Origin: an uncultured Bacteroidales bacterium | Lineage (GTDB): Bacteria > Bacteroidota > Bacteroidia > Bacteroidales > WCHB1-69 | DNA length: 64,000 nt | Direction: 5' to 3' | NCBI GenBank assembly: GCA_900315245.1 | Contig: OMYJ01000007.1 | Span: 93,256-157,255 of the forward strand | Shown: positions 10,031 through 53,950 of the stretch, piece after piece | Position numbering within the stretch: position 1 is the stretch's first letter | Layout: every line of letters begins with the position of its first letter | Made by a program: the position numbers and the translations under genes | The notes under the pieces: model-generated | Database searches by the model: none | The model's input: the letters and a program-made list of their open reading frames with translations, nothing else | Told to the model about the DNA's origin: nothing

Positions 10031-11030
10031 TGGAGTTTCGTTCCCAGAAGACGCCGTCGGCGTATCCTTGTATTGTGGGATTCGTGTCGGCGAGGAGGAG
10101 GCGTTTGGCGGTCCAGAGGCAGTATTCGCGGTTGAGTTCGACGCAGCAGAAGCGACGGTTGAGCTTCTTGGCAACGACGGCGGCGGTGCCGCTGCCGGAG
10201 AAGGGGTCGAGGATGCGGTCGTCGGGGTTGGAGGAGGCGAGGATGAGTTTGGCGTAGAGTTTCTCGGGCTTCTGCGTGGGGTGGTCGGTGTTCTCGGGCA
10301 TCGACCAGAAGGGCACGCTAATGTCGTCCCAGAAGTTGGAAGGGTGGGTGAGTCGGAATTTGCCCTCGGCGGTGTCGTCCCAGTCTTTGGGCTTCCCGTT
10401 CACTCGATATGGGGCTATCACCTTGCGTTTCATCATGACGGCATCCAGGTTGAAGGTGTGGTGTTTCGGGTCTTTCACGGCGAACCAGATGTCCTCCATG
10501 CTGTTCTTCCAGTTGGATTTCGCCCCGCGGCCCTTCTCGCGTTGCCAGGTGATGCGGTTGAGGATGGTAAGTCGCTCTTCGATAACCCGTTGCATGGAGG
10601 AGGAACATTTCCAGTCGCCGCACATGTAGAGCGTGCCAGTCGGTTTCAGCTTGTCGCACACCTTGCCGAACCAGCTGCGCAGGAATTCCTCGTATTCGTC
10701 TGATTTCATAGACGAGAACTTCCGTCCGTTGAAGTCTTTGTCGAGGTTGTAGGGCGGGTCGAGGAGGATGAGGTCGAAGTGTTTGTCGGGGATGAGGTCG
10801 AGGCATTCGAGCAGGTCGCCGTTGACGAGCATGTTGTCGCGGAAGCCCGAGCGCAGGTCGTCCGGCGTGCTGACGATCGGTTCCAGCGCGGGGACTTCCC
10901 CGGCGGTGACCGTCAGCGTCTGATTACGCGGGGCACGTCCCCCACACTGTGGCTCCGCCTTGTGTGGGGTTAATTTTGCTTCGCGCGTCTTGCCCCTCCG
11001 GGGCTGCTCAAGGAATGAATTCGTTGTCAT
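10020..11030 (-). CDS. Orphan beta-class N6-adenine/N4-cytosine DNA methyltransferase (N6_N4_Mtase family)
   Basis: Motif IV LLDPPYNL precedes motif I DPFSGSGTAAV. The track start 11075 is a TTG inside the -7 box, so the first plausible ATG is 11030 (alternative 10832). The first ~35 codons are encoded by a repeat element. No adjacent endonuclease is recognisable. Confidence 0.85.
   Translation of the reverse strand: MTTNSFLEQPRRGKTREAKLTPHKAEPQCGGRAPRNQTLTVTAGEVPALEPIVSTPDDLRSGFRDNMLVNGDLLECLDLIPDKHFDLILLDPPYNLDKDFNGRKFSSMKSDEYEEFLRSWFGKVCDKLKPTGTLYMCGDWKCSSSMQRVIEERLTILNRITWQREKGRGAKSNWKNSMEDIWFAVKDPKHHTFNLDAVMMKRKVIAPYRVNGKPKDWDDTAEGKFRLTHPSNFWDDISVPFWSMPENTDHPTQKPEKLYAKLILASSNPDDRILDPFSGSGTAAVVAKKLNRRFCCVELNREYCLWTAKRLLLADTNPTIQGYADGVFWERNSIKN
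10939..11010 (+). repeat. ~70-bp direct repeat, right copy (inside the 5' end of the methyltransferase ORF)
   Basis: CCCCCACACTGTGGCTCCGCCTTGTGTGGGGTTAATTTTGCTTCGCGCGTCTTGCCCCTCCGGGGCTGCTCA, in the same orientation as 9839..9908. Confidence 0.8.
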
Positions 11031-11064
11031 TTGCTGCCTCTTTCTCTCATGCTTTTCGAAGCCG

Positions 11065-11072
11065 CAAAGGTA
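11065..11072 (-). promoter_or_regulatory. -7 box (TACCTTTG) for the methyltransferase, possibly also feeding nqrEF
   Basis: Extended CCGCAAAGGTACA context, 35 nt upstream of ATG 11030. Confidence 0.55.
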
Positions 11073-11146
11073 CAATTTTTTGGTGTTCGTGCATAATCAT
11101 CAGAAACAACAATCGCATTTCACCTGCGCACTATCGGATTTTTTTG

Positions 11147-11154
11147 TACTTTTG
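11147..11154 (+). promoter_or_regulatory. -7 box (TACTTTTG) reading into the plus-strand island genes
   Basis: TAnnTTTG match divergent from the methyltransferase promoter. Confidence 0.45.
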
Positions 11155-11430
11155 CACCTGTAAAAATGGATAAGAACCAAACTTTATTGAATATTAGAAG
11201 AGAGAAATAGACATTTATAATTTTTTGATATAAAGCGTTTTTGCTTTTCAAGTAATCGGAAATCTGGACAATTTCCACTGTGTTACAGAAGAAGGCAGAA
11301 ATGCTCACGGTGTATCCGTGGGCTTTCTCGTTTGTAACACAGGCAGTCCAGAGCCTCCGATTAGACAGAAAGACTCACGGATTCTTTTTTGTGACAGCTC
11401 GAAAGGCGAAGCGCCCCAAACGCCAAGCCT

Positions 11431-11634
11431 ATGAGCACCAAGTTTTTCAACAATATCGAGACGAGGCTGATGGACAAATTCCACGGCATCGCCTCCGCCA
11501 TGGCCAACTTCGACATCTTCCATGCCGTGGTTGGCTATTTTCGTTCCAGCGGCTACTTCAAACTGCGCAAGGAGCTGGAGAAGGTCAGCGAAATCCGCAT
11601 CCTCGTCGGCATCAATATCGACACAATATTCTGA
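11431..11634 (+). pseudogene. N-terminal 67-codon fragment of a PLD-like-domain / SNF2-type restriction-like helicase gene
   Basis: MSTKFFNNIETRLMDKF...FDIFHAVVGYFRSSGYFKLRKELEKVSEIRILVGINID matches, from memory, the N-terminus of large PLD-helicase(-methylase) proteins. The ORF stops exactly where GC-rich sequence switches to AT-rich sequence. Confidence 0.55.
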
Positions 11635-11669
11635 AAATAATAAATACACGATTGCTTTTTAAGAAGTAG

Positions 11670-14027
11670 TTGAAACTTGCGACTATTTTTTTAGTTTTGC
11701 AAAGTCATATTCAAAAGAATTGTTTTTACAAAATATCAATAGTTGTGGAAAATTATAAACATGCTTGGCAATATGCTTTAAGAAATCAATTAAAGCACTT
11801 GCGGTCCGAAGGTGAGATATCTGAAAGAGAGTGCCTGTCTTTAATAGATGATATAATATCTTGTGATTCTGAAGCGGAATTTTATCGTCGTCATGACATG
11901 GATAACATTTTGAGTGGCGATATCATTCCTGACTTTGTCACAACTGATGATATTATCACAGATGACCTAACTATTGAAGACGAAGCACGTAAAATTGTAT
12001 TAGAGAAAAATATACAACTTATTGATGGCGTTTATTATTGTTTGAAAGAAAAAAAAGTAATCGCTATTAAGGGCGATGTAACACATTGTCATATACGAGA
12101 AGGAATTAAAGAAATCACTTACTATGCTTTTAGAAACTACTCCGAATTTGATATTCGAGATATTCTTGAGGATTATTCTGTCTTCAGTCACAATGCTTTA
12201 CTGGATATCATATTGCCTGATAGTTTAAAAAAGATAGATGACCTCGTCTTTTATAATACTAGTTTACGTAATGTTAAATTACCTGATGGTTTAGAAATGT
12301 TGGGAGAAAAAACTTTTGCTGCTAATGATTCTTTAGAAACAATTGTTTTACCAACCAAACTGCGCACAATAGGGAAAGGATGCTTTTCTAATTGTCCAAA
12401 ACTTAAGGAAGTTGAGCTTCCCCAATCGGTAAAAATGATAAAAGATGATTGTTTCAATGGCTGCACTTCTTTAGAAAAGTTTATTTTCCCTCAAACAGTG
12501 AAATCCATTGGTAAGTGCGTTTTCGAAAAATGTGTCTCTTTAAAAGAAATTGAGCTTCCTCATTCTTTGGAAACTATAGGACAAGCCGCTTTTACTAAGT
12601 GTACATCCCTACAGTCTATTATTATACCTAAAAATGTAAAAAACATTTCCGATAATGTATTTGGATATTGTTCCTCTTTAAAGAAAATTGAGTTTTTAGG
12701 GAGCTTCGACGAATTGAAGGGTGGTTTTTTTCGCAGTTGCTATTCATTGAAAGAAGTATTGTTGCCAAATAGTTTAGTAGAAATCGGCAATGCTGCTTTT
12801 AGCTCATGTATATCCTTAAAGGGCATAAAGATTCCTGACACAGTAGAATTAATAGGCTGTAACACTTTTAGAGATTGTATTTTGTTGGAGGAGTTCAGAT
12901 TTCCGAATAATCTTCAAGTTATTTTATCGCAAGCTTTTAAGGGATGCAAGAGCCTACGAGTAGTATATGCAAACAACAATATTGTAAAGATTTTTCCTAA
13001 CGCCTTTGATGATTGTAGTTCATTACAAGCCATTGTTGTTCCACCAGGATCGCTAAAACGAATGCAAAGTATCTTCCCGAAACGTGTTGCTGAAAAACTA
13101 GTAGAAATAGACCAGTTTCGGCCAGAAACTATTGTTGCTGTGCAACTTTATAAGAAAGATTATGTAATTAACAATATCAATCGTTCTTTTTTGAATAGTT
13201 TTCCGTGGAAGTATATTAATACCAACAATGTTACTCTCTTGCATCCCAATTACGTAGTTGGGCCTTGTCCAAAGCACCTTATTTATGAACGGGAAGATTT
13301 ATTGTCTCTTGAAACAAAGTACCAAGATTATTATTATAAGATTCAAAATGATTTTATACGAGGAACATTTTACAATCTCGATGACGAAATGTATAAGACG
13401 TATGCTTTCATACTATTTTTCGACTTAATTGCATCATACAGAGACAATAAAGATTTGAGTAAATTGCTTAATCAATTAGAAATTGTGCGTATTTCCTGTC
13501 CTATAATAGGGGATTATGTCCCAGAAAAGCTAATGACAATAATAGATTATAAACAATTGACTGGCACCTCTAAATTAATGATTCTTAAGGCTTTTCCGGG
13601 TTTTCGAGGCATGATGTCCATAAAGGACTATGCCCTGTTGGTGTTAAATTATTCTGATTCTCAAATAATCAAATTGAAAATACTGGAAGACGTTCAGATT
13701 TGTGAAATACAATTGTTGAAGTCTTATGAGAAAAGATACAAAGTGACACAAGGAGAGATTATAAAAGAAACGATAGATCTTGTGCTGCAAGTCGCCGGAA
13801 AATATGATGATTTTTCAAAGGCAGCGTTGTTGGCAGCAAAAAGGCAAAAAATCACATCTCTAACAGAGATAGGTTCGAGATTTTTGCGCAGATGCTTTCA
13901 GGAAGTGCTTCGTAATCATAATCCAAATATTATTTATGGTGATGGGATAGGATATGGAGATTGTGGAATTGAGAAAATTGATGAATACCTAAAGGAAATC
14001 ATGGAATCGAACACGCCGATTCACTGA
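11670..14027 (+). CDS. Signal-peptide-less BspA-type leucine-rich-repeat (LRR_5) protein with an unknown ~320-aa C-terminal domain
   Basis: About 11 repeats of the form LP.SL..IG..AF..C.SL..I.IP. The start is uncertain: TTG 11670 or the first in-frame ATG at 11898. AT-rich. No signal peptide or TM is visible. Confidence 0.75.
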   Translation: MKLATIFLVLQSHIQKNCFYKISIVVENYKHAWQYALRNQLKHLRSEGEISERECLSLIDDIISCDSEAEFYRRHDMDNILSGDIIPDFVTTDDIITDDLTIEDEARKIVLEKNIQLIDGVYYCLKEKKVIAIKGDVTHCHIREGIKEITYYAFRNYSEFDIRDILEDYSVFSHNALLDIILPDSLKKIDDLVFYNTSLRNVKLPDGLEMLGEKTFAANDSLETIVLPTKLRTIGKGCFSNCPKLKEVELPQSVKMIKDDCFNGCTSLEKFIFPQTVKSIGKCVFEKCVSLKEIELPHSLETIGQAAFTKCTSLQSIIIPKNVKNISDNVFGYCSSLKKIEFLGSFDELKGGFFRSCYSLKEVLLPNSLVEIGNAAFSSCISLKGIKIPDTVELIGCNTFRDCILLEEFRFPNNLQVILSQAFKGCKSLRVVYANNNIVKIFPNAFDDCSSLQAIVVPPGSLKRMQSIFPKRVAEKLVEIDQFRPETIVAVQLYKKDYVINNINRSFLNSFPWKYINTNNVTLLHPNYVVGPCPKHLIYEREDLLSLETKYQDYYYKIQNDFIRGTFYNLDDEMYKTYAFILFFDLIASYRDNKDLSKLLNQLEIVRISCPIIGDYVPEKLMTIIDYKQLTGTSKLMILKAFPGFRGMMSIKDYALLVLNYSDSQIIKLKILEDVQICEIQLLKSYEKRYKVTQGEIIKETIDLVLQVAGKYDDFSKAALLAAKRQKITSLTEIGSRFLRRCFQEVLRNHNPNIIYGDGIGYGDCGIEKIDEYLKEIMESNTPIH

Positions 14028-14072
14028 GCATACTGATTAAAAATAGGCGTGATGCTCTTTCTTTCTTTTATT
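14026..14072 (+). terminator. Candidate terminator after the LRR gene
   Basis: GAGCATAC...GTGATGCTC imperfect stem followed by TTTCTTTCTTTTATT. Confidence 0.4.
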
Positions 14073-14247
14073 AGTTGAAGCTTGGAGTTGCATATTCCGG
14101 CGATACCCGTTGGAGTTTTTGAGTTTGCGGAAAATTAGTCAAATATCTTATGAAAAAGAAAAACGATAACAAATACCGAAAATCAATACAATCAATATGT
14201 GATTGAGGTAATATCATAATCTCAAACACAATGGGGATTTACTACAG

Positions 14248-14469
14248 TTGGATAAGGTTCAATTTCTTACAGTCCCGTTATACTGTCCTTCTACTAAGCA
14301 ACAAACACTCGTTGTCGCTTTGGTTGACAAAATCATTGATGCTAAGAAGTCCAATCCTTCGGCTGATACCTCCGCGTTGGAGCGTGAGATTGACGAGTTG
14401 GTGTACGAGTTGTATCAATTGTCACCTGAAGAGATTGCCACAACAGAGGGTTATTGTACACAGAATTAA
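14248..14469 (+). pseudogene. C-terminal fragment of a type IIG / Eco57I-like restriction-modification methyltransferase
   Basis: ...LVVALVDKIIDAKKSNPSADTSALEREIDELVYELYQLSPEEI is the characteristic C-terminal tail of gamma-class RM/BREX-type methylases (from memory). No upstream catalytic region is present. Confidence 0.55.
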
Positions 14470-14548
14470 AATAATAGTGTAAATCGCTGTGTGATTTCTT
14501 GTTCAAAAGGTCTATTCACCTGTAATTTACTGCAATTTGGTTGATAAG

Positions 14549-14594
14549 AAATAGCATTTTTTTCTGACAATTCACGAATTAAATGCTATTTTTG
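14549..14594 (+). promoter_or_regulatory. -7 box (TATTTTTG, 14587..14594) embedded in an 11-bp inverted repeat
   Basis: AAATAGCATTT (14549..14559) and AAATGCTATTT (14581..14591) are perfect reverse complements. The right arm overlaps the -7 box. Confidence 0.5.
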
Positions 14595-14631
14595 TGAAAT
14601 AATCAACCTAACGAAAGGAGGTATAAAAGAA

Positions 14632-14757
14632 ATGGCAAAAAAAGTACCATCAAGAAGAGTCGCATCTCTTGCAGCTCGTGCGTTAAGAAATCGCAAATCA
14701 AGCAGAGCCTTAAAAAGTTTGGCGGGAAGTGTGCTTTCACAGCGAGAAAAGAGATAA
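14632..14757 (+). CDS. 41-aa Arg/Lys-rich micro-ORF (MAKKVPSRRVASLAARALRNRKSSRALKSLAGSVLSQREKR)
   Basis: Not in the track because it is <60 aa. ATG is preceded by AAAGGAGG at -18..-11 and by a TAnnTTTG box at 14587..14594. Coding status is unproven. Confidence 0.3.
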   Translation: MAKKVPSRRVASLAARALRNRKSSRALKSLAGSVLSQREKR

Positions 14758-14801
14758 AGCAATAAAAATGTTTATAATTCTAACAATTAAATCTAAGTAA
14801 C

Positions 14802-15224
14802 ATGGATAGTAGCAAATTAAAAGATCTTATCGTGACTTTGCTCATAGAAGAGTCATCAAAAGTTGGGAACAGATTCACGTTTGATGCCTGCGCAACACCG
14901 ATAAAAGAATCAACGTCTGATGATGTTGAGCGCGTACTGCATTCGTTGGCGCAAGATGGATTCATCAATTGTGATGATTTATTAGAAAACAACTACTTTA
15001 TAACATTAAACCAGTCAATTTTTGATTTGAAAGAGCGCGGCGGGTTTTCAATGCAACTTGAAATCCTAAAGTTGAGATTTGAGAAACTACAAATAGAGGT
15101 TGAAAAACTTGAGAAAGAAGACTTCGAAAAAAGCTCCATGAAAGTTTCCGCGTTTCGTGACATTACGGGAATATTGAGCTCTCTTATCAATATCGTTTCT
15201 GCCATTGCAGATTCTTACAAATAA
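14802..15224 (+). CDS. Hypothetical protein (possible wHTH-like N-terminus, coiled coil, hydrophobic C-terminal helix)
   Basis: AT-rich ORF with a 12-nt gap to the next ORF. LEILKLRFEKLQIEVEKLEKEDFEK coiled coil. C-terminal ITGILSSLINIVSAIA. No family recognised. Confidence 0.55.
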   Translation: MDSSKLKDLIVTLLIEESSKVGNRFTFDACATPIKESTSDDVERVLHSLAQDGFINCDDLLENNYFITLNQSIFDLKERGGFSMQLEILKLRFEKLQIEVEKLEKEDFEKSSMKVSAFRDITGILSSLINIVSAIADSYK

Positions 15225-15236
15225 AATAATCATACA

Positions 15237-16073
15237 ATGAAGACATTTCAAGATAATAACAAAAATGAATGCCCTAAACCAGGAATTCGTCAGAGGTGTT
15301 TTCGACACTCGATTTTTAAAACGCTATCTGATATTAAGGACTTTTATGAAAGTTTGTCTGGGAATGATGATACATCTACTATTCTCGCAATTAAGGGTGA
15401 AATCAACGTTAACTGGAGCATTCTTGAATCTCTTTCTAATACTATTGACTCCATAATAACATTGTTGGAAAGAGGTCATGTGAATGACTCGCTTGCCTTA
15501 ATGAGAAAATACAGCGATGCTGTCTTTTTGCATGTTTACATGCTTGTGCTAATAGAACAAGGAGAACAAAACTTTTTCGAAAAAGAATATGCAGATATCT
15601 ATGACAATGTCCTTAACCAATGGGTTAGAGGGGAAAGTTGTTTGATTGAGAAAAAGGACAAAGATGAGAAAACAGACGCTTATTTAGCAGAAATACGAAA
15701 ACGAGACGCTATATTAACCAAGCTGTTGTTTACAAAAGGCAATAAAACATTGTATGGAGAAGGTAGGGCTTCTTTTAACGACAACATTCATTACAACAAC
15801 TTGAAATCGTTTCGGTGGAACAATAATGCCTTTTTGGATTATGAAACATGTTTAACTGTACTGAATCAAGCAGAAAAAGCAATCAAACTTATTTTGAGCA
15901 TTCATTTCGCTTACATAACTCTATTGCGCCCAATGGCTTTGAAATCAGAAGAGGTTGGATCTTGTGCGGCCAATCCTTTCGCAGACGAAATTTTCAAGAA
16001 GTATATTGTTCCTGAATACTGCGAGTTAGCCAGTTACTTGAGACATTGTTCTTTTTTAACATTCGAAGAGTGA
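15237..16073 (+). CDS. Hypothetical all-alpha protein
   Basis: 278-aa AT-rich ORF tightly linked to 14802..15224. No family recognised. A loose resemblance to AbiV/HEPN-like helical proteins is only a guess. Confidence 0.55.
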   Translation: MKTFQDNNKNECPKPGIRQRCFRHSIFKTLSDIKDFYESLSGNDDTSTILAIKGEINVNWSILESLSNTIDSIITLLERGHVNDSLALMRKYSDAVFLHVYMLVLIEQGEQNFFEKEYADIYDNVLNQWVRGESCLIEKKDKDEKTDAYLAEIRKRDAILTKLLFTKGNKTLYGEGRASFNDNIHYNNLKSFRWNNNAFLDYETCLTVLNQAEKAIKLILSIHFAYITLLRPMALKSEEVGSCAANPFADEIFKKYIVPEYCELASYLRHCSFLTFEE

Positions 16074-45274: not shown

Positions 45275-47035
45275 TTACAGTTTTACCACCGCATTGTAAA
45301 ACTCGATACAGGATTCCTTGATCTGGTCGGTGTTGGTGCGGTAGTCACCCTCCAGTTGCGCTTCCCATTTGTGGAGGTTTTGATTTTTCTTCCCCAAATG
45401 ATAGTTGAAATGGTATTTGGCTAAGTCGCCACCAGCCATAACGTTTATCTTTTCCACCATATCCGGGTTTTCTGTTTGAATCTGCAACGTGAAGGAATTG
45501 TCTTTGGGCGAGCAGCGGAATTCCGCCTTTAAGTTGTTGCGTTCGTAAATCCTGCCGTAGGTCTTGCCTTTTACCGCCCTTATGCTCGGAATGGAGGGTT
45601 TCAAGTCGGCCACGAAATGCTCAAAGAAACTCATTATTTCAAGGGCGGCCTGGCTCTTGCCCCTCTTCGGAGCCGTGTCGAACGCCTTGAGGTTGGTGAC
45701 CGCCGACAGGGCGATGACCGATTCCACGATGTCGCCCAATTTGTCGTCATTGCCGATGATTTCGGCGATTTTGTTGAGCAGTCTCGACACTTGGAAGGCG
45801 CGTATGCTCAGATAGGTCTCCTTTTGACACATCCGGAACAACACTTTCTCCCACTCCTCGTCGAACTCTGTGGCAGCGTTCAGGCTCTCCTTCTCATCTT
45901 CGGTCAGATGGCGCAGTTTCAGCTTCGCGGCAGTGCCATCGTTCCAATTCTTGAAATCGGGTTCTTCCGTCAGCTGGTTATACACGTACGGATAGGCGAT
46001 CTGCATACAGACCAACGCGAAATTGATCAGTTTGGCCTGTGTGGCATTGGTGTCATTCACCTCGTCATCGTCATCCCCTTCGTTGATGATGGAGATGAGC
46101 GACAGGGTGTTGCTCAGGCGTTTCAACGAGCGCGGGTTGCTTCCGACCGACAGGCGGGCAATCTCACTGAGGTTTTCGGCCAGAGACTCGTTTTCCAATT
46201 CCTTTGGTGAAAAAAATTCGATTTTCTGGAGGGCATCCACCAGGAAGGTGTCAACGTTGTAGGAGGCCACGGGCATCGAGAAGGGCAGTTGGATGATCTT
46301 GTCGAAGAATGCGCGGAACTCGCGCTCGTTCTTGTCGGTCAGCTCGCCGAATTTGGATCTCAGGCCCTTGATGACCACGTCGTAGTCTATGGCGAGGATG
46401 AACACGCACTTGTCGAGGTCGAAGATGTTCTTCATCAGTTCCAGAATCTCCACGGCGACAGGCGGGTCGATGCGGTCGAGGTCGTCAATGTAGAAAGTGA
46501 AGCCGATTTTCGACGGGTTCATCTTGAGGGCCTCCTCGATGAGTTTGGCGATTTCATTTTTCAGCTGGAGGATATCGGACTCAGCGCTTTCGCCGCCGAA
46601 CAGTTCGTCCACCACATCTCCGTCCACGCCCACGGTGCTGGCCGCCACCTTGGCGCCCACCGAGGCCATTTTCTTGAAGATGCCGCCAATTTTCTTCTTG
46701 CTCTCGTTCCATTTGTGGTCGGGATTGATTTCGCCGATTTGGTTTATACACCCTTCGAGGATGCTCATAATGGCCTGCGGTGGCGTTTTCATCAGCGAAT
46801 ACTGCCACGTGTTGACCCATACGGGGAAATAGGGTGCTCCCTCTTTGTCACACAGCTCATAGCGGAGCTGGTTCATCAGCGAGGTCTTTCCGCTGCCCCA
46901 CTCGCCTTGCAGGGCGATGGTGATGGGCGTGTTGGTGAGCCGGATGAACTTGACTAGCGCGTTCTGGTATTTTTGGATTCCGAACAAATCTGCCTCCGAA
47001 TATTTGCGAGGCACATCAATGATGCTGGATTTCAT
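45275..47035 (-). CDS. KAP-family P-loop NTPase
   Basis: Walker A LQGEWGSGKTSLMNQL. YIDDLDR Walker B/KAP signature. 586 aa. Confidence 0.85.
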   Translation of the reverse strand: MKSSIIDVPRKYSEADLFGIQKYQNALVKFIRLTNTPITIALQGEWGSGKTSLMNQLRYELCDKEGAPYFPVWVNTWQYSLMKTPPQAIMSILEGCINQIGEINPDHKWNESKKKIGGIFKKMASVGAKVAASTVGVDGDVVDELFGGESAESDILQLKNEIAKLIEEALKMNPSKIGFTFYIDDLDRIDPPVAVEILELMKNIFDLDKCVFILAIDYDVVIKGLRSKFGELTDKNEREFRAFFDKIIQLPFSMPVASYNVDTFLVDALQKIEFFSPKELENESLAENLSEIARLSVGSNPRSLKRLSNTLSLISIINEGDDDDEVNDTNATQAKLINFALVCMQIAYPYVYNQLTEEPDFKNWNDGTAAKLKLRHLTEDEKESLNAATEFDEEWEKVLFRMCQKETYLSIRAFQVSRLLNKIAEIIGNDDKLGDIVESVIALSAVTNLKAFDTAPKRGKSQAALEIMSFFEHFVADLKPSIPSIRAVKGKTYGRIYERNNLKAEFRCSPKDNSFTLQIQTENPDMVEKINVMAGGDLAKYHFNYHLGKKNQNLHKWEAQLEGDYRTNTDQIKESCIEFYNAVVKL

Positions 47036-47112
47036 AAGTGTTCTAAGGTGTTTAAATTATTGTTTCCCAAAGTCCGTTTTGTTAATGAGTTGACCGATTT
47101 TGCGACGCCCAG

Positions 47113-47355
47113 TTACTTCTCCCGCTTCAATGCCTCCTTGGCGTTTTCGATGTTGCGCTTGATGGACTCGATGTTGCGGTCGTGGGAGGCCGCATGGTCG
47201 ATCTTGGATTTGCGGTAGGAAGCCTTTGAGGAGGGCGAGGACGCGCTCTTGATCAGGCTCGCATAGCGTTCGTTGTCTCTTTTCTTGGCCTCGCGCTCGC
47301 GTTCCAGCTGCGCCCGCAGGTCGATGATTTTCTTTTTGTAGTACTCTTTGCTCAT
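47113..47355 (-). CDS. 80-aa charged coiled-coil protein
   Basis: Lys/Glu/Arg-rich heptad-like sequence on the same strand as its neighbours. Confidence 0.45.
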   Translation of the reverse strand: MSKEYYKKKIIDLRAQLEREREAKKRDNERYASLIKSASSPSSKASYRKSKIDHAASHDRNIESIKRNIENAKEALKREK

Positions 47356-47377
47356 AATTCTTTATTACTGTTGTTTC

Positions 47378-47417
47378 GCCTACTCTTTTCCGGATTTTTG
47401 GCGGGCTCCGTGGTAGG
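47378..47417 (+). repeat. Conserved intercistronic motif, copy 1
   Basis: GCCTACTCTTTTCCGGATTTTTGGCGGGCTCCGTGGTAGG. Compare 49961..50000 and 50900..50935. Confidence 0.8.
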
Positions 47418-47422
47418 AATTG

Positions 47423-49043
47423 TTATTTCTCGTAATTCTTTCGTGCCATTTCCAAGATGGTGAGCGCGGCCTTCGTCTGCTCAGTGGTCGGGGCTTTGTC
47501 CACCGGGAACTTGAAGGTGTGGTAGCTGACATTGCGTGAGGTGACCTTGTGCTCGAAGTTCGGAAGCGCTTTGCCAATCTTTTCAATCGCCACCGAATCC
47601 TCCATACCCCAGGCATTGACAACGAGAGCCTTGGGCTGTGGGGCAAAGGTGACGAAGTTCTTGGCCTTGCCATTCTGCGAAAAGCCGATGTAGCTTTTGC
47701 TGTCGTAGTTCACTTGGTAGGTGCCGTCTTGTACGTATGGCATCCCCGCAACGAGCCTGTCCAAAATCTGCAGCGCAGGTTTCACATCCTTCACCATGTT
47801 CTCCCAAACATCGCGGCCGGGAGCGGTCGAGCTGGCAGACTTTGCGGTTTGTTTCACTTCTTTGGGCGTCTCTTTTTCTTTCTTGGGTTCTTCTATTTTC
47901 TCGACAACTTTCTTCTCTGCCTTTGGTGTTTCTTTCTCTTTTTTTTGGTGCGTTTTTCTGCTGAGCCTCGTAAATGCGAGCATCCAGCAGCAGCTCGAAC
48001 TCATCGGTGTCGCCGCCGGCTTCTTTTACCTTTTTGATGAGGATGGCACGCTCTTTGTCGGTGACCACACCATCCACTAGGGCGGCTTGGATGAGTTTCT
48101 CCAGGTCAATGGAGGCTCCTTTGGCCGGGACTGTTTCCTTTTTCTTTTCCTTGGTTACTTTTTCCGCTGCCGGTTTCGGAGCTTTCTTTTTGCCCAGGTA
48201 GTTGATTTTTACACGATTGGTGAATGCGGTAGGGTGAATGACCACCTCTCCCTCCTCGTTCAAGATGTTAGCGATCTCAAGACCACATAACTGATCTCCA
48301 TTATCACCAAAGGCATCGTTGGCAACTGCAGTGACAGAATCGGGTATTGTGATTTCTTTTAATGAAGAACAGCCCTTGAAAACAGAGGAATTAATAAAAA
48401 TGACAGAATCGGGTATTGTGATTTCTTTTAATGAAGAACAGTCGGAGAAAGCATCGGGACCAATGGAAGTGACGGAATCGGGTATTGTGATTTCTTTTAA
48501 TGAAGAACAACGCTCGAAAGCAGAATCACCAATTTCAGTGACAGAATCGGGTATTGTGATTTCTTTTAATGAAGAACAGCCCAAGAAAGTACCGTAACGA
48601 ATGGAAGTGACAGAATCGGGTATTGTGATTTCTTTTAATGAAGAACAGCCCAAGAAAGCACAGCAATCAATGAGAGTGACAGAATCGGGAATTGTGATGG
48701 TTTCCAACGAGGAAGGAAAACGACAAGAAATTTTTTTGATTGTTTTAGGCAACACCACTTCTCTAGTTTGTGAATTAAAAATCTGCTCATACACTTTCGA
48801 GCTTCCTTTTTTTCTTTTATCAAAATATATCTCGGCTTCTTTGTATCTATCCAGAGCGGTGACTGTATATTCCACTCCGTTATATCTGACTCTTATAGGG
48901 ATGACGCACCTCTCAGAAGAATTTGTAGCATGTATTAGCGCCACCTCTTTTTGGGATTCATCTATGATTTTATAATAGAAACCGTAGAATTCAAAGGATG
49001 TTTTTTCGTCAGTACTGGTAATTTTTGTGTAATAATCTGCCAT
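47423..49043 (-). pseudogene. BspA-type LRR + TerB-like helical module + unknown C-domain protein, split by a frameshift in an A8 tract
   Basis: Track ORFs 47583..49043 and 47423..48004 overlap. Removing one A from the A8 run (47939..47946) joins ...YEAQQKNAPKK to EKETPKAEKK.... Six LRRs of consensus SLKEITIPDSVT. No signal peptide. Confidence 0.7.
48333..48720 (-). repeat. Six 69-bp tandem units encoding the LRRs of the frameshifted gene
   Basis: Units start at 48333, 48402, 48471, 48540, 48609 and 48678. A ~41-nt block (GACAGAATCGGGTATTGTGATTTCTTTTAATGAAGAACA) is invariant and ~28 nt are variable. Confidence 0.9.
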
Positions 49044-49091
49044 ATTTTTAAATTTATTTGTTTAGTCGTTATTGTTGTTGTTTCAAAAATG

Positions 49092-49931
49092 TCATATTTT
49101 TTTGCTTGCCGGATAAATCTGCGTATCTTTCTTGTCGTTACATCTTAAAATATCCTTATGGTTATGTCGCAAATAGTTTCTGACCATCCATATCAAGTTG
49201 TCCTTACTGCCGTTGTCCAATGCACGTTGTCCAGAAAGCATAGAGGAGAAGTACATCTGGGCCTTGAAACCCTTTGTGGAAAAGGTGTAGCCTCCGAGTT
49301 GGTCGTTTTGGGTCAAGCTATACTTGGCATTCTTGTAGAAATTGTCGTATTTGGGTTGGTCGAGTTTCAAGAGATCCCTACATAACATTTTGCAAGCAAG
49401 AGCATTGGCAACAATAATGACTTTTGGCTGAGTCAGTATCAAATACTTCAAAAAAAGTTCAAACATCTCCTTGTAATAGTCTGGGTTTTCCAGAAAATCC
49501 TCTCTTACGACAGACTGGTTGCTCTGCACGATACCGAAAAGATCCAATTCTGAAAAACTATTCGTACAACCTAAACATTTTTCCGCAAACTCCCCCATCT
49601 CTCTATAGTACGGGCTGTCCCCACCATAGGCAAACACATCTTCTTTGTTGCGGGAATAGCTTTTCTTGTCAGTTCCGGAAGGATTCATGCCGACAAACAG
49701 GAGAGGAGCTCCCTCGCAAAGCCGGTCGCTTATTTCAATGCAGGGAATCTCATCCGGTTTGTCACCGCTATTTTTCTTCTCAGAATACTTGCACTTGTCG
49801 CGTTCAAGAACCCATTCTTCCGTCTTGTTGTCAAGTCTTATCTTGCGGTTGCAGAATCTTTCTCTAAAACTTGGAACATTCCATAGCGCGACGTATTCTT
49901 CTTTCAACTGCGTTGTCAATGGGCTTATCAT
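49092..49931 (-). CDS. Uracil-DNA-glycosylase-superfamily-like protein (Mug/TDG-like motifs; tentative)
   Basis: PLLFVGMNPSGTD resembles the Mug motif LFVGINPG. FSSMLSGQRAL resembles the PNPSGLS second motif. From memory only. Confidence 0.35.
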   Translation of the reverse strand: MISPLTTQLKEEYVALWNVPSFRERFCNRKIRLDNKTEEWVLERDKCKYSEKKNSGDKPDEIPCIEISDRLCEGAPLLFVGMNPSGTDKKSYSRNKEDVFAYGGDSPYYREMGEFAEKCLGCTNSFSELDLFGIVQSNQSVVREDFLENPDYYKEMFELFLKYLILTQPKVIIVANALACKMLCRDLLKLDQPKYDNFYKNAKYSLTQNDQLGGYTFSTKGFKAQMYFSSMLSGQRALDNGSKDNLIWMVRNYLRHNHKDILRCNDKKDTQIYPASKKI

Positions 49932-49960
49932 TGTTTTTTTGACAAAGGATAAATAGTAAT

Positions 49961-50000
49961 GCCTACTCTTTTTCGGATTTTCGGCGGACTCCGTGATAGC
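49961..50000 (+). repeat. Conserved intercistronic motif, copy 2
   Basis: GCCTACTCTTTTTCGGATTTTCGGCGGACTCCGTGATAGC. Confidence 0.8.
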
Positions 50001-50138
50001 GTTTTATTCAGCTCAAGCTCCATTCCGTTGGAGTCTCTGCTTGATTAATCCGTTCGGTGGAAAGGCGGTTCGTGAAAGTCTAGTTCAAAAAAAGATGACT
50101 ATCTGGCAAAACTGTCAGATAGTCATCAATAATTATGG

Positions 50139-50876
50139 TTAGTTATTTCCAGCGTCTTTCAACATGGAGCTGTCGTTGGAAAGTTTGCTGTCATCCGAGC
50201 GGGCCACCTGGACATTGATGCCGAAAATGGATTTCATCTTATATTCAAAGTCCATCACCTTCATTTCGTTGGTGGCCTCGAAACTACCCACTTGGGTGGC
50301 ATCACCGTCAATGCGAAGACCGGCGAGGTGTGCCTTCGGGTTCGCCTTTTTGCCGCTGGGTTCATAAACACGCAGGCAGGCATTGAAAGCATCTTTGAAT
50401 TCCTGCTGCAAGGTGTTCACCGTCATACGGCCGTCCACTTGGAAGGTGAAGCCGGCAAGATATTCCAACTCGTAGGAGCCGCGTTCAGTGCCTCCTTTGG
50501 TCTTTTCGAAGGAGGCAACCTCTATGCCGAGTCCCTTTGCGTGCTCCACTATGGTTGGGAAGTTGCTTTCTCCCCACATTATCTTGTAGAAGATAACTTC
50601 GGTGCCGTCTTCCAAGGTGAGATACCAGTGAATTTTTCTCCATTGGGCGACGTCTGCTTTCTCGCGATCGGTGCCGTTTGCCTCGACTCCATTCTCCAGT
50701 TCATTCAAATCAACGAGAAGTTTGTCAGTGCTTTTAGTCGAGGCGAACTTATCGCGCGGGAAAGCCTTGTTCAGGTCTTCCAATGTGGCGTAAGGATAAA
50801 TCTTCAAATAGGCATTAATTATGCCAAGGGCAGTCCACCCTTTTGCTTTTCCATAAACTAAAACTTTAGGTTCCAT
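50139..50876 (-). CDS. Hypothetical protein carrying module X at its C-terminus
   Basis: The C-terminal ~95 aa (VNTLQQEFKDAFNACLRVY...FEYKMKSIFGINVQVARSDD) are paralogous to 52040..52342 and 52388..52750. Confidence 0.55.
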   Translation of the reverse strand: MEPKVLVYGKAKGWTALGIINAYLKIYPYATLEDLNKAFPRDKFASTKSTDKLLVDLNELENGVEANGTDREKADVAQWRKIHWYLTLEDGTEVIFYKIMWGESNFPTIVEHAKGLGIEVASFEKTKGGTERGSYELEYLAGFTFQVDGRMTVNTLQQEFKDAFNACLRVYEPSGKKANPKAHLAGLRIDGDATQVGSFEATNEMKVMDFEYKMKSIFGINVQVARSDDSKLSNDSSMLKDAGNN

Positions 50877-50899
50877 AATAATATTGTTTTTGTTGTTTT

Positions 50900-50935
50900 G
50901 CCTACTCTTTTCCGGATTTTCGGCTTACTCTGGTT
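50900..50935 (+). repeat. Conserved intercistronic motif, copy 3
   Basis: GCCTACTCTTTTCCGGATTTTCGGCTTACTCTGGTT. Confidence 0.8.
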
Positions 50936-50975
50936 ACACTTATCTTCGGTGTTTTTATTCTACAGTTGTAATAGA

Positions 50976-51407
50976 TTATTCGAATAATTTTGTGATGTTG
51001 GATATCTTTTTTGCGAAGTCAGAGACATCATCCATCATTTTCATTGCGTCGTCCAATTCAGCCAAATCTTTCCGTTTCCGTTCTTCCTCCGTCAGGAAAG
51101 TCTTGTCGAAATCGTCATCGAATTCGAATTCGAAATAGTCGTCGTAGTTGGGTTTCCGGAAGAGGGATTTTTTAGCGCCTCGTTTTTTGGAGGTCACCAT
51201 AGCGTCCAACAACAGTCCGAACTCCTCGGCATCGAACCCTATTGCCACGGCTTTGCGTATCAGGATGCCCGCATCAAGTTCGGAGAGTTCGTCCTTCATC
51301 AGGGCGGAGCGTACGAGTGGGCGCAACGATTCAACCTGCGGCAACGGTGTTTTATCCCCGTTGCCGCCAGCTGAATGGTTGAAAATGTCAATATCGTTGG
51401 TGTTCAT
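50976..51407 (-). CDS. Hypothetical acidic protein with a TerB-like helical module
   Basis: ATG 51407 (MNTNDIDIF). LSELDAGILIRKAVAIGFDAEEFGLLLDAMV parallels VTDKERAILIKKVKEAGGDTDEFELLLDARI in the LRR gene. Confidence 0.5.
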   Translation of the reverse strand: MNTNDIDIFNHSAGGNGDKTPLPQVESLRPLVRSALMKDELSELDAGILIRKAVAIGFDAEEFGLLLDAMVTSKKRGAKKSLFRKPNYDDYFEFEFDDDFDKTFLTEEERKRKDLAELDDAMKMMDDVSDFAKKISNITKLFE

Positions 51408-51459
51408 TATAGTATGTGTCGTAAGGATTGGTATGAAAGATGTTGGGAATAGCGAGGCT

Positions 51460-51768
51460 TTACATTTCCTTTTCTTCAACAAGTTCCGTTAGAATACCTT
51501 TGGCATGTTCTGTGTCAATGCCAAGAATGCCGGCAAGGACAAAGAAATTGTTGATCTCTTCTTCTGCAAGGTAGGAATCGCATCCCATCAGTTGGAGGCA
51601 GAGGGCTAATATCCCGTCTTTTTCTTCGGGATTTACCTTTTTGGCGGCGTCGGTGAGCTTTTTAGTCAGTTCATCAGCAGATAGATTTGTGACATCTGCT
51701 ATACAAGCCTGAACATCGTCAACTAAGGTGTCTAGTTCGAGATTGGCTGCGATTTCTTGTGTCGCCAT
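51460..51768 (-). CDS. Small acidic helical protein (TerB-like, tentative)
   Basis: 102 aa. DGILALCLQLMGCDSYLAEEEINNFFVLAGILGID. Its start overlaps the stop of the upstream peptide ORF. Confidence 0.45.
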   Translation of the reverse strand: MATQEIAANLELDTLVDDVQACIADVTNLSADELTKKLTDAAKKVNPEEKDGILALCLQLMGCDSYLAEEEINNFFVLAGILGIDTEHAKGILTELVEEKEM

Positions 51769-51938
51769 TATTTACGTTTTTTCCTGCCTGTGAAAAGGTT
51801 GAGGATTCCCCTCCCGATTTTGCGTTCCAGGCCGCCTTTGGTGGTTGGTATGCGTGTCTTGCGGGCGATTTTGGTCTTGAGACCAGAGATGCCGATGGCC
51901 CGTTTTAAGGAAAATGAAAGACCACGTACACGAGACAT
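51768..51938 (-). CDS. 56-aa Arg/Lys-rich peptide
   Basis: MSRVRGLSFSLKRAIGISGLKTKIARKTRIPTTKGGLERKIGRGILNLFTGRKKRK. This is the distal part of track ORF 51768..52175. Its stop overlaps the next start (TAATG). Confidence 0.3.
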   Translation of the reverse strand: MSRVRGLSFSLKRAIGISGLKTKIARKTRIPTTKGGLERKIGRGILNLFTGRKKRK

Positions 51939-52039
51939 AATGTGATATTTTAGTGGTGGATTGGTGCTTTTTTGAATTAAACTCATAAAAGTTGTACGCT
52001 GTTGTGCCAGCGTACAACTTTGCGATTTAAAACGAAATA

Positions 52040-52342
52040 CTATCTGCCGGCGGCAGCGATAGTGATGTCGTTGTCGGCCAGTGCGCTGTCGTCCTTGGTG
52101 GCGACTTGCACGGTGACGCCGAACAGCTCTTTCATTTTGGTCTCGAAGTTGCCGACCTTGAGGTTTCCGGCGCATTTGAGTTCACCGCCCTTGGCGTCGC
52201 CCACGCGGATAGACGCGAGCGTGGCGTCATCGTCAGCGAATTGTTTGCCCTTGTAAACTCTCAGCGTTGCACCGAAAGCTTCTTTGAATTGTTTCTTCAG
52301 ACTTTTGACCGTCAAGCGGCCGCTAATGTTAAATTCTGCCAT
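52040..52342 (-). CDS. Hypothetical 100-aa protein consisting of module X
   Basis: LTVKSLKKQFKEAFGATLRVYKG...KVGNFETKMKELFGVTVQVATKDD. Confidence 0.55.
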   Translation of the reverse strand: MAEFNISGRLTVKSLKKQFKEAFGATLRVYKGKQFADDDATLASIRVGDAKGGELKCAGNLKVGNFETKMKELFGVTVQVATKDDSALADNDITIAAAGR

Positions 52343-52387
52343 AATGAATGTTTTTTTAGTGAATAATTGGGTTGAAAAAGGTTTCTG

Positions 52388-52750
52388 TTAATATTCGCCA
52401 CGAGCAGCCTGCCCGATGGTGATGTTGTTCGGCACACACTCCTTGCCGGCCTTGTCCTTGATTTGGACGGTTACGCCAAAAGCATCGTTAAACATTTTCT
52501 CTGCATCTCCCACCTTGGTGCTGCCCTTGAGTTTGATCTCTGCGTTAGCTTTTTTCACATTTTTGGAAGTGTGCTTGTCCAATTCCGCAAGCGTCATGTC
52601 GCCGTCCGCGATCATCGACCCTTTGTAGAAGACAAGTGTGCAGTCGAAATTTTTCTTGAATTCCGCTGAAATGGTTTTCAATTTCTTGTTCGGAGCGACC
52701 GTGAACTCCGCGTTGTTGAATCGGTCTTTGATGTTGTTGAGAATACCCAT
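52388..52750 (-). CDS. Hypothetical protein consisting of module X
   Basis: ATG 52750 (track start 52780 is a TTG). LKTISAEFKKNFDCTLVFYKG...KVGDAEKMFNDAFGVTVQIKDK. Confidence 0.55.
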   Translation of the reverse strand: MGILNNIKDRFNNAEFTVAPNKKLKTISAEFKKNFDCTLVFYKGSMIADGDMTLAELDKHTSKNVKKANAEIKLKGSTKVGDAEKMFNDAFGVTVQIKDKAGKECVPNNITIGQAARGEY

Positions 52751-53018
52751 AACAATTAAGTTTTGATTGTTTTTGATCAATGAATCAATACTGCAAGGGC
52801 TTCACTAACAGGCACGAAAAAAGGCGTGGCCTGTCTTTGTCGTCAAAGAGGTTCTAGCAAAACCCAAGCAGAAAACAAAAAACAATCCACGCCTGTTGCA
52901 GGCATGATCACTGTAATTGCTTTTCTGCTGTTGATTAAAATTTGCTAGATTTCTTTGACAAACAAAAAGCGATTGCACGATAACTAAAGAACGTCAGTTT
53001 TTCGAGGAAAACATGCTG

Positions 53019-53026
53019 CAAAAATA
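53019..53026 (-). promoter_or_regulatory. -7 box (TATTTTTG) ~265 nt upstream of 52388..52750
   Basis: TAnnTTTG match. It implies a long structured leader. Confidence 0.45.
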
Positions 53027-53027
53027 T

Positions 53028-53099
53028 AAAAAAATCATACACAAGCGTGAATTGTGTTTTTTTTCAAAGAACGACGTGAAATCCGTTGCCTGTGATTTC
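53028..53099 (-). ncRNA. Candidate ~70-nt small RNA or promoter-proximal attenuator
   Basis: -7 box at 53106..53113. 9-bp hairpin CGTGAAATC/GATTTCACG (53075..53102). Second hairpin ACACAA/TTGTGT (53039..53057) followed by a T-run on the minus strand. Confidence 0.25.
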
Positions 53100-53113: not shown

Positions 53114-53362
53114 ATATCTTGATTGATTGCCCGTTTGGTCCGAATTGGTCCGAATTAGGGTCGGCTGTTAGGGGTTGCTCTCGCAAGAGCCCCTATCATC
53201 ATCGCTTCATCGTTTCATCGCTTCATCGTTTCATCGTTTCGTCGCTTCATCGTCAAATTTTTCGCCAAATCACGACCTTAAAATTTACAATTAGAAATCG
53301 AATAGTTAACTGAATTTTTGTAAACAATTGACTCTCAGCGAGAAATAAATTACGCAAAACCC

Positions 53363-53500: not shown

Positions 53501-53950
53501 ATGACGAAAACTAATATTAAAGAAGCAGTTGTAGAAACAGGGAAATATGGTCCAGTGTACAGACAATTTGCGGGGAAGCCAAAAGAGGCTATCAAATTTC
53601 TACGTGAAAAGAAAAATGGCGAATGTATAGCAGCCCTGTACCGCAGCGACATTGGGGACATTGACATCGTTTGGGGAGAAATTACAGACCCGATCAAACA
53701 CAAAGGATATGGTTTGGCTCACATTATTGACAAGCACGAACTTGAAATCAATAAGTTGGGATTTAATGTGGAAGATTTTGTACCTATCGTCGTTCAATTT
53801 GGCAATTTCAATCTAAAGAAGTCAGACAGTCAGAAAAAAGTGTTTGAAAGCGAGACTTTCAGATTTGTTGTGGCATTGGAAAACGAACAGAATGGGAAGA
53901 TAAAGAAATGGTTGCTCTCAGCCTTTGATATATTAAAAAGACCGAAGTGA
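53501..53950 (+). CDS. Small stand-alone protein resembling the N-terminal nuclease-like domain of phage/ICE polyvalent proteins (PBECR-like; tentative)
   Basis: GPVYRQFAGKPKEAIKFLREKKNGECIAALYRSDIGDIDIVWGE...GYGLAHIIDKH resembles, from memory, a domain at the N-terminus of giant conjugative-element/phage proteins. It has its own TAnnTTTG promoter and a terminator hairpin. Confidence 0.4.
   Translation: MTKTNIKEAVVETGKYGPVYRQFAGKPKEAIKFLREKKNGECIAALYRSDIGDIDIVWGEITDPIKHKGYGLAHIIDKHELEINKLGFNVEDFVPIVVQFGNFNLKKSDSQKKVFESETFRFVVALENEQNGKIKKWLLSAFDILKRPK

Follow-up and report, generated by a model that had tools for sequence, protein, structure and literature searches.

Do ten consecutive genes on the minus strand of a rumen Bacteroidales contig form one undescribed conflict system, as an earlier note made from the sequence had proposed, or are they separate genes that happen to share a strand? 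The genes lie at positions 45275-52780 of a 64,000-nt stretch of contig OMYJ01000007.1 (hereafter the window), which is identical to an ENA rumen-metagenome contig (locus L001); the nearest named genomes are ruminal Bacteroidales metagenome-assembled genomes. Our analysis indicates that the interval is probably one allele of a strain-variable, same-strand array of defence-island-type cassettes, carried on a conserved frame of uncharacterised genes in an uncultured rumen Bacteroidales lineage, in which the cargo genes would act independently against invading DNA. All ten minus-strand open reading frames (ORFs) were found as described, at a spacing of -1 to 207 nt, and the stop codon of g3 overlaps the start codon of g4 (TAATG at 51766-51770). 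The genes are listed below in transcription order, module X being a domain shared by g1, g2 and g6.

g1, 52388..52750, minus strand: stand-alone module X protein of 120 amino acids (aa); an extension of the ORF to a TTG at 52780 is possible.
g2, 52040..52342, minus strand: stand-alone module X protein of 100 aa; near-constant frame.
g3, 51768..51938, minus strand: 56 aa, highly basic, pI 12; near-constant frame.
g4, 51460..51768, minus strand: 102 aa, acidic, pI 4.05; variable cassette.
g5, 50976..51407, minus strand: 143 aa, acidic, pI 4.72, with a helical motif of the g8 type; variable cassette.
g6, 50139..50876, minus strand: 245 aa, an N-domain followed by a C-terminal module X; retained in distant loci, dispensable among close strains.
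g7, 49092..49931, minus strand: 279 aa, uracil-DNA glycosylase (UDG) superfamily, candidate DNA glycosylase; variable cassette.
g8, 47423..49043, minus strand: two overlapping frames; cytoplasmic BspA-type leucine-rich repeat (LRR) protein with a TerB-like motif and a C-terminal domain; variable cassette.
g9, 47113..47355, minus strand: 80 aa, basic, probably helical; near-constant frame.
g10, 45275..47035, minus strand: 586-aa KAP-family P-loop NTPase; variable cassette.

The first gene exists, but not with the TTG start at 52780 that had been assigned to it: all metagenome gene calls use the ATG at 52750, g1 is called as 120 aa in all assemblies, and it is found in nearly every variant with a contig covering its position.

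The evidence that carries the answer comes from strain comparison. All array genes were mapped onto 45 related loci, and strains whose g2 is 96-100% identical showed at least nine architectures, including the following.

Window type: g1, g2, g3, g4, g5, g6, g7, g8 (frameshifted), g9, KAP.
L010: g1, g2, g3, g6, g7, g9, KAP.
L011 and L027: g1, g2, g3, g6, a PvuRts1I-like gene, g9; no KAP.
L055: g1, g2, g3, g6, a PvuRts1I-like gene, g9, then genes for a 635-aa PDC-M09A-like protein and for 271-aa and 210-aa proteins.
L002 and L003: g1, g2, g3, g7, a radical-SAM/SPASM gene, g9, KAP; no g6.
L044 and L046: g1 to g7, g9; KAP is replaced by the PDC-M09A-like set.
L049, L051, L053, L054 and L056: g1, g2, g3, a 92-aa membrane protein gene, g9, the PDC-M09A-like set; no g6, g7 or KAP.
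L052: an insertion of TerB, DUF533, TPM-phosphatase (TPM_phosphatase) and DUF4230 genes.
L038 and L039: a PvuRts1I-like gene, intact g8, KAP; no g9.

The presence/absence matrix leaves only g1, g2, g3 and g9 near-constant, so the ten genes are not inherited together as a single system would be. Each of g4, g5, g6, g7, g8 and KAP is missing from some strain that retains the others; KAP is present without g6, g7 or g8, and g7 is present without KAP. For instance, g4 is missing in L010, L011 and L003 and found in L044 and L052; g8 is missing in L010 and L044 and lies intact directly 5' of KAP in L038. The proposal of a single ten-gene system thus fails on the independent assortment of g4, g5, g6, g7, g8 and g10 among near-identical strains. 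At least four slots can be recognised. The position after g3 holds g4/g5, the 92-aa membrane protein gene or nothing, and the next holds g6 or nothing. A third slot is filled by g7 alone, g7 with g8, g7 with the radical-SAM/SPASM enzyme, or the PvuRts1I-like endonuclease, which takes the place of g7 in L011, L027 and L055. The slot after g9 contains KAP, the PDC-M09A-like three-gene set or nothing. Breakpoints are sharp (49148-47426 for g8; 51778-50956 for g4-g5), and the ends of the KAP indel coincide exactly with the g9 stop (47113) and with the start (45225) of the gene that follows, MetA.

The alternative occupants are recognised defence genes, which supports the cassette-array reading. 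The PvuRts1I-like protein matches Pfam PvuRts1I_N and SRA (3.6e-31 each) and PADLOC mREase_II (4.7e-80), and the 635-aa protein matches PADLOC PDC-M09A (4e-30; a PDB sequence search with it found nothing). Of the conflict-system proposal, then, the conflict or defence flavour stands, through the PADLOC matches, the UDG fold of g7, the PvuRts1I-like and PDC-M09A-like replacements and a neighbouring PBECR1 gene, but the single system does not. The apparent ten-gene system would be one momentary state of a shuffling array, and the choice of what to clone and test changes accordingly.

Some variants also carry traces of other events. A remnant in L011 (11839-11958), 3' of the PvuRts1I-like gene, preserves the final ~50 nt of the coding sequence of g8; a g8-type gene therefore once held that slot. 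A second, partial g3-like segment (residues 1-26, 69% identical) lies just 5' of the radical-SAM/SPASM gene in L002 (1999-2076) and L003 (2168-2245); it may be a remnant, or else encode a peptide that partners the radical-SAM enzyme. Strain-specific cargo is also found downstream, between the MetA-like gene and a 445-aa lipoprotein gene (L011 13194-16109; L049 14660-17562); it includes a 127-aa protein in which a GF.YDPEW module is repeated, a nuclease of the GIY-YIG_2 family and an ion-transport protein. The GF.YDPEW module also ends an LRR-TerB-like protein, P0159. In L038 and L039, a 66%-identical paralogue of the 445-aa lipoprotein comes after g3, and a '189-aa' gene that is upstream in the window comes after KAP. 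Such an order points to recombination on a larger scale or to the locus being present twice.

What several of the array genes share is an RNA motif. The ~35-nt motif that the earlier note had seen in three of the gaps is indeed there: three exact copies of its 16-nt core were found in the gaps and none elsewhere in the 64 kb, and loose matches (at most three mismatches) numbered 7 with ~1 expected, a count reached in no shuffle. It is not an unnamed element, being already catalogued as DUF805b (Rfam RF02914, clan CL00115). An Rfam scan of the whole window gave two matches, both DUF805b (copies 1 and 2 below); the gathering score is 35.6 bits.

DUF805b copy 1, 50899..50933, minus strand: 22 nt 5' of the g6 ATG; 37.2 bits.
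DUF805b copy 2, 49960..49994, minus strand: 28 nt 5' of the g7 ATG; 43.2 bits.
DUF805b copy 3, 47377..47411, minus strand: 21 nt 5' of the g9 ATG; 31.4 bits, E 1.2e-5, below the gathering score.

The motif was reportedly named for its position upstream of DUF805-domain genes. No Pfam match to a DUF805 domain was found in the downstream genes g6, g7 and g9. Over the related loci there are 11 distinct copies, preceding g6, g7, g9 or the PvuRts1I-like gene by 21-29 nt. The 4-bp stem is 97.7% paired in these local copies, with one G-C to A-U compensation; covariation among them is not significant, being no better than in shuffles (79/500). Conservation is higher in the loop (GCCGAAAAU) and the tail (AAAAGAGUAGGC) than in the stem. 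In L003, g6 is deleted (50871 to 49937) between two DUF805b leaders. Junctions cluster 15-23 nt 5' of the copies. A role of DUF805b as a site-specific recombination site was considered and rejected: with no fixed crossover point and no recombinase found within ~10 kb, we treated these junctions as ordinary homology-driven loss. DUF805b would serve as a shared expression leader whose repetition also gives homology for cassette loss. The motif, an orphan in Rfam, gains a concrete context at the head of interchangeable defence-type cassettes, including a restriction enzyme.

Among the cargo of this allele, g7 is a candidate DNA glycosylase. Its assignment as a UDG/Mug-like protein was borne out by the predicted fold and by an invariant GMNPS motif with the MUG/TDG-type Asn. 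The AlphaFold2 (AF2) model has a pLDDT of 88 and a pTM of 0.87, and a Foldseek search with it against the PDB gave 31 matches at E<=1e-3, every one a UDG-superfamily enzyme. The top matches (E ~1e-4, probability 1.0) are UdgX, human TDG, family-4 UDGs and the E. coli and Deinococcus MUG enzymes; target-normalised TM scores of the PDB matches are 0.4-0.64. At the sequence level g7 stands outside the curated UDG families, with no match in Pfam, NCBIfam, PADLOC or PHROG, and a search of its profile against PDB sequences gave nothing but SMUG1 at E 2.9. The family comprises 49 clusters. In an alignment of 37 members, G81 and N83 (in LFVGMNPS) are invariant; further conserved blocks are DLF, VANA and SMLSGQRALDN. 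The motif of family 2 (MUG/TDG) is G-[IM]-N-P-G with a catalytic Asn; GMNPS is its equivalent, so a glycosylase mechanism is plausible. By analogy, N83 may be the catalytic residue. Enzymes of the PvuRts1I family cleave DNA containing 5-hydroxymethylcytosine (hmC) or its glucosylated form (ghmC), and the presence of such an enzyme in the g7 slot of sister strains supports a role for g7 analogous to that of the Brig enzymes. Brig1 is an antiviral UDG-fold glycosylase that removes alpha-glucosyl-hmC (PMC11078745), and Brig2 acts on modified thymidines (bioRxiv 10.1101/2025.10.29.685425). In their manner, g7 would flip out and excise a non-canonical base by means of its MUG/TDG-like Asn, leaving abasic sites. 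We nominate the g7 family as a candidate antiviral glycosylase of rumen Bacteroidales, a group with few characterised defences.

The last gene, g10, is a KAP-family P-loop NTPase, as had been called (PF07693, 126 bits, the cut-off being 20; E 2.4e-36; 3-289 of the 293 profile positions). As read from the translation, both Walker motifs are intact, A as GEWGSGKTS and B as TFYIDDLD. PADLOC gave sub-threshold matches to PDC-S20 (1.4e-30), PifA (3.2e-30) and also QatA. The C-terminal region of ~270 aa has no known domain and no similarity to the C-terminal domain of g8; a PDB sequence search with the KAP protein found nothing. Transmembrane helices in or near the P-loop domain are common in the KAP family and not universal; no hydrophobic stretch was obvious in g10 by eye, no transmembrane predictor having been applied. 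A stand-alone KAP NTPase with an uncharacterised C-terminal region has been shown experimentally to defend Enterococcus (EF_KAP, PMC13552941). In the manner of EF_KAP and PifA, g10 may act as a stand-alone, NTP-driven defence protein.

The LRR gene g8 is of the BspA type (LRR_5, PF13306, 179.6 bits, E 2.8e-53), and the frameshift noted in it is genuine. It is caused by an A8 tract at 47939-47946, where an intact frame needs A7: homologues at 95-96% identity read ...QQKNAPKKEKETPKAEKK... Since the A8 tract is identical in nine assemblies of the window strain from several samples, it is a fixed +1 insertion and not an assembly error. We infer that g8 of the window strain is inactivated as a pseudogene or depends on slippage at this tract. 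The motif ILI(K/R)K...DEF.LLLDA is common to g5 and g8 (BLASTP 9e-7). The TerB-like part of g8 is a region of sub-threshold matches (residues 298-376), with DUF533 at residues 298-352 (18.3 bits with a cut-off of 29.6) and DjlA (E 0.0013); the g8 homologue P0148 bears a precomputed PF04391 match. The link of g5 to the TerB fold is solely through its similarity to g8. Both g4 and g5 had been described as acidic and TerB-like. The acidity is confirmed, but the TerB-like label of g4 finds no support, with no match in family profile searches and no similarity to g5. Within the LRR region of g8, positions 48330-48698 are a 69-nt (23-aa) tandem array of 5.3 copies with 83% nucleotide identity, which suggests recent expansion or a recombination-prone gene.

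Two of the frame genes encode module X, which is present in three proteins as reported before: g1 and g2 are 37% identical, and the C-terminal ~100 residues of the 245-aa g6 align with both (44-45% with g2). A profile of the three sequences found 980 representative clusters (clusters at 50% identity; 516 of them at E<=1e-10) among 1.84 billion proteins. Module X is mostly N-terminal and followed by long, often very acidic, unannotated regions; some proteins hold up to eight tandem copies. Its fusions to Pfam domains include DUF4116, LRR_5, FGE-sulfatase, OmpA and an endonuclease. P0199 has module X, the TerB-like motif and LRR_5 in a single chain, and in P0155 the TerB-like motif is fused to module X. 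The N-domain of g6 (~140 residues) is fused elsewhere to a transmembrane helix and an OmpA peptidoglycan-binding domain (~70 clusters). The AF2 model of g6 has a pLDDT of 91 and no significant fold match (best E 0.09 in the PDB and 0.036 in BFVD). A known fold for g6 or module X was rejected, weak ubiquitin-like Pfam matches in g2 and two family members being insufficient. Module X and the g6 N-domain are uncharacterised modules that are now defined, with confident models and no structural relatives. As a guess, the frame with module X would act as an adaptor or in regulation. The basic g3 has no match in family profile searches and is 76-100% conserved in close-relative variants. In Bernardetia sp. 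OM2101 (L015 6068-8587), a 530-aa ATPase-like and a 275-aa HNH-like ORF, recognised by eye, lie ~1.4 kb 5' of a module X gene and resemble a two-gene defence pair.

The surroundings of the array add a gene with a toxin-type nuclease domain. A PBECR1 (Barnase-EndoU-ColicinE5/D-RelE-like) nuclease-domain gene (53501-53950, plus strand, 149 aa, 5.5e-20) diverges from the array and is retained in most close variants with a contig covering its position. GC content over 45-53 kb of the window is 0.41-0.53. No recombinase family was found among the precomputed Pfam annotations within ~10 kb; ORFs adjacent to the locus were also scanned. Two matches to the Bacteroidetes -7 consensus TAnnTTTG occur on the array strand, both 5' of g1 (a sigma-70 promoter scan is inapplicable to the host phylum). 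One terminator-like hairpin within the array was read from the sequence; an automated scanner overlooked it because the loop is longer than 8 nt.

Terminator-like hairpin, 50087..50127, minus strand: 3' of g6; 12-bp stem, 10-nt loop, T7.

Other features lie outside the array genes. A tandem repeat of period 8/24 nt (TCATCGCT / TCATCGTTTCATCGTTTCATCGCT, ~6.8 copies) occupies 53199-53253, between the PBECR1 gene and g1. A segment of ~185 nt 5' of g1 (52881-53065) is missing in L010, L011, L038 and L003 and kept in L044. It ends in a terminator-like hairpin with a T-run (52907-52887), holds a TAnnTTTG match at 53026, and may represent a small mobile insert, or else an attenuator within the leader of the array. 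A block of GC 0.33-0.36 at 11000-16000 of the window, the remainder of which is 0.45-0.57, is probably another horizontally acquired segment.

A looser core recurs in more distant relatives. In distant Bacteroidales loci whose g6 is 61-65% identical, a core order is kept in at least two genomic contexts: g1-like, a 113-aa protein, the g6 N-domain with transmembrane helix and OmpA, g2-like, g6, a 250-aa protein, a 305-aa protein and g9-like. The g2 orthologues are 58-67% and the g9 orthologues 65-72% identical, and KAP at 62-70% identity follows g9 in L029-L031. The 250-aa protein carries GLNPS and aligns with the g7 family over the GMNPS, DLF and VANA blocks (hhalign probability 59%, E 9e-5). 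A PDB sequence search with its 305-aa partner found nothing, and DUF805b is absent from the distant loci. The expectation that the genes co-occur outside this genome therefore holds in part: a module X gene occurs there together with g6, with a gene of UDG type and with that of the 80-aa protein, and in three loci with KAP as well, but several other genes fail to co-occur. This conserved order makes a functional linkage among the module X genes, g6, the UDG-like gene and g9 possible.

Several observations weigh against an array of independent defence cargo. The order of g2, g6, the UDG-like gene and g9 is conserved at ~62% identity, a coupling that independent cargo leaves unexplained. The frame genes and g6 have no known function, PADLOC families are not enriched among module X proteins (3 of 98), and a stand-alone module X gene of Bernardetia sits among housekeeping genes, presumably an rRNA methyltransferase-like and a DprA-like gene as read by eye from the translations. 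No integrase or transposase was found within ~10 kb in the precomputed Pfam annotations of gene calls. Of the defence assignments, the PifA match of g10 is limited to the NTPase half of PifA, and g7 could be a repair enzyme. The array is known here from sequence and predicted structures alone. We nonetheless prefer the cassette array. What is new in it is the unusual frame, the setting of DUF805b, a candidate glycosylase family and two domains without structural relatives.

Of the other explanations, we tentatively keep one as a minor possibility: the frame of g1, g2 (often with g6), g3 and g9, under DUF805b leaders, may serve as chassis for a modular immune system, not described so far, whose effectors are interchangeable. 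It is retained because of the possible linkage in the distant core; the P0199 fusion and the synteny at 62% identity are compatible with it. If this were true, an NTPase, either KAP or the PDC-M09A-like set, would be coupled through homotypic module X contacts to interchangeable effectors that sense DNA modification (the UDG-like glycosylase, the PvuRts1I-like nuclease and the LRR-TerB-module X proteins), and DUF805b would be the common regulatory switch.

A non-conflict accessory locus with chance defence neighbours is unlikely. Such a locus would combine an envelope or Ter-like stress response with DNA repair. The inner membrane would be the site of action of module X, the g6 N-domain and OmpA proteins; stress sensing would fall to the TerB-like modules, and g7 would serve in repair as a glycosylase. 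The fusion of the g6 N-domain to a transmembrane helix and OmpA in ~70 clusters, the TerB, DUF533, TPM_phosphatase and DUF4230 genes in the L052 array, the TerB-like motifs of g5 and g8 and the housekeeping context of module X in Cytophagales all fit it. On the other side, genes for stress response or repair do not usually vary so extremely in presence between strains, the same slots are held by bona fide restriction genes and by defence candidates, and the g7 family, tiny at 49 clusters, is not among the curated UDG families.

One integrated conflict system of all ten genes, in which the NTPase, an LRR sensor, a glycosylase-like effector and small adaptor modules work together, is improbable. 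The fixed frameshift of g8 in nine assemblies of the window strain and the terminator-like hairpin 3' of g6 speak against it, as do the separate losses of g4, g5, g6, g7, g8 and KAP, with KAP occurring without g6, g7 or g8 and g7 without KAP. In its favour are the common strand and short gaps, module X in three proteins, the P0199 (module X, TerB-like, LRR_5) and P0155 (TerB-like, module X) polypeptides, g8 directly 5' of KAP in L038, and the core order at ~62% identity, with KAP in L029-L031.

It is likewise improbable that the array is an interbacterial-antagonism island of orphan immunity and toxin cassettes like rAID-1, with small proteins that neutralise toxins and an integron-like motif. 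The co-directional small unannotated genes, the repeated intergenic element, rapid cassette turnover in Bacteroidales and the adjoining PBECR1 toxin-type nuclease domain recall such islands, and rAID-1 indeed has 'repetitive intergenic sequences reminiscent of integrons' (bioRxiv 10.1101/471110). Its defining features are a XerD-like tyrosine recombinase at the 5' end and a cassette GC of 41% or lower (bioRxiv 10.1101/471110), however, and no XerD-like recombinase was found at the 5' end of the array or within ~10 kb, the GC is 0.41-0.53, the recognisable cargo is DNA-targeting or NTPase defence and not immunity families, and the junctions are not at one fixed site in the motif. A prophage remnant or other phage origin was rejected, since no relatives of g6 or g7 were found in IMG/VR viral contigs; PHROG matches were found only for the LRR and KAP genes, and the best BFVD match of g6 is marginal (E 0.036).

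The cassette array that we favour can be compared with known systems part by part. Its g10 resembles EF_KAP, PifA, PDC-S20 and QatA in pairing a KAP P-loop domain, whose Walker A and B motifs are intact, with a C-terminal part that holds no known domain. It differs from EF_KAP in the lack of evident transmembrane helices (by eye), from PifA and QatA in that similarity is confined to the NTPase part, and from known stand-alone KAP defences in that the g10-type gene lies 3' of a conserved 80-aa gene in several lineages. Like Brig1 and Brig2, g7 combines the UDG-superfamily fold with a sequence that has little similarity to repair UDGs, and it lies in a variable defence context, where it is interchangeable with a modified-base-dependent nuclease in an array flanked by KAP or the PDC-M09A-like set. 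Unlike them, it has the MUG/TDG-type GMNPS Asn and an extra N-terminal segment of ~60-80 residues, and no Brig entry is among its top 50 PDB fold matches. The DUF805b copies share with the known RNA (Weinberg et al., 2017; PMC5737381) the small hairpin and conserved AAAAGAGUAGGC tail immediately 5' of ORFs, but they head a UDG-like gene, a restriction enzyme, g6 and g9, not DUF805 genes. With rAID-1 the array has in common co-directional genes, a repeated intergenic element and gene gain and loss; it departs from rAID-1 in its lack of a XerD-like recombinase, its GC, which is not low, and DNA-targeting defence cargo instead of immunity genes. As in defence islands and hotspots, the defence or defence-candidate genes found at a given position differ between near-identical strains, and the breakpoints are sharp. 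In contrast to those islands, no flanking integrase or prophage/satellite backbone was found for the array, its frame consists of small genes that are uncharacterised and interspersed among the cargo genes, which have an RNA motif in common.

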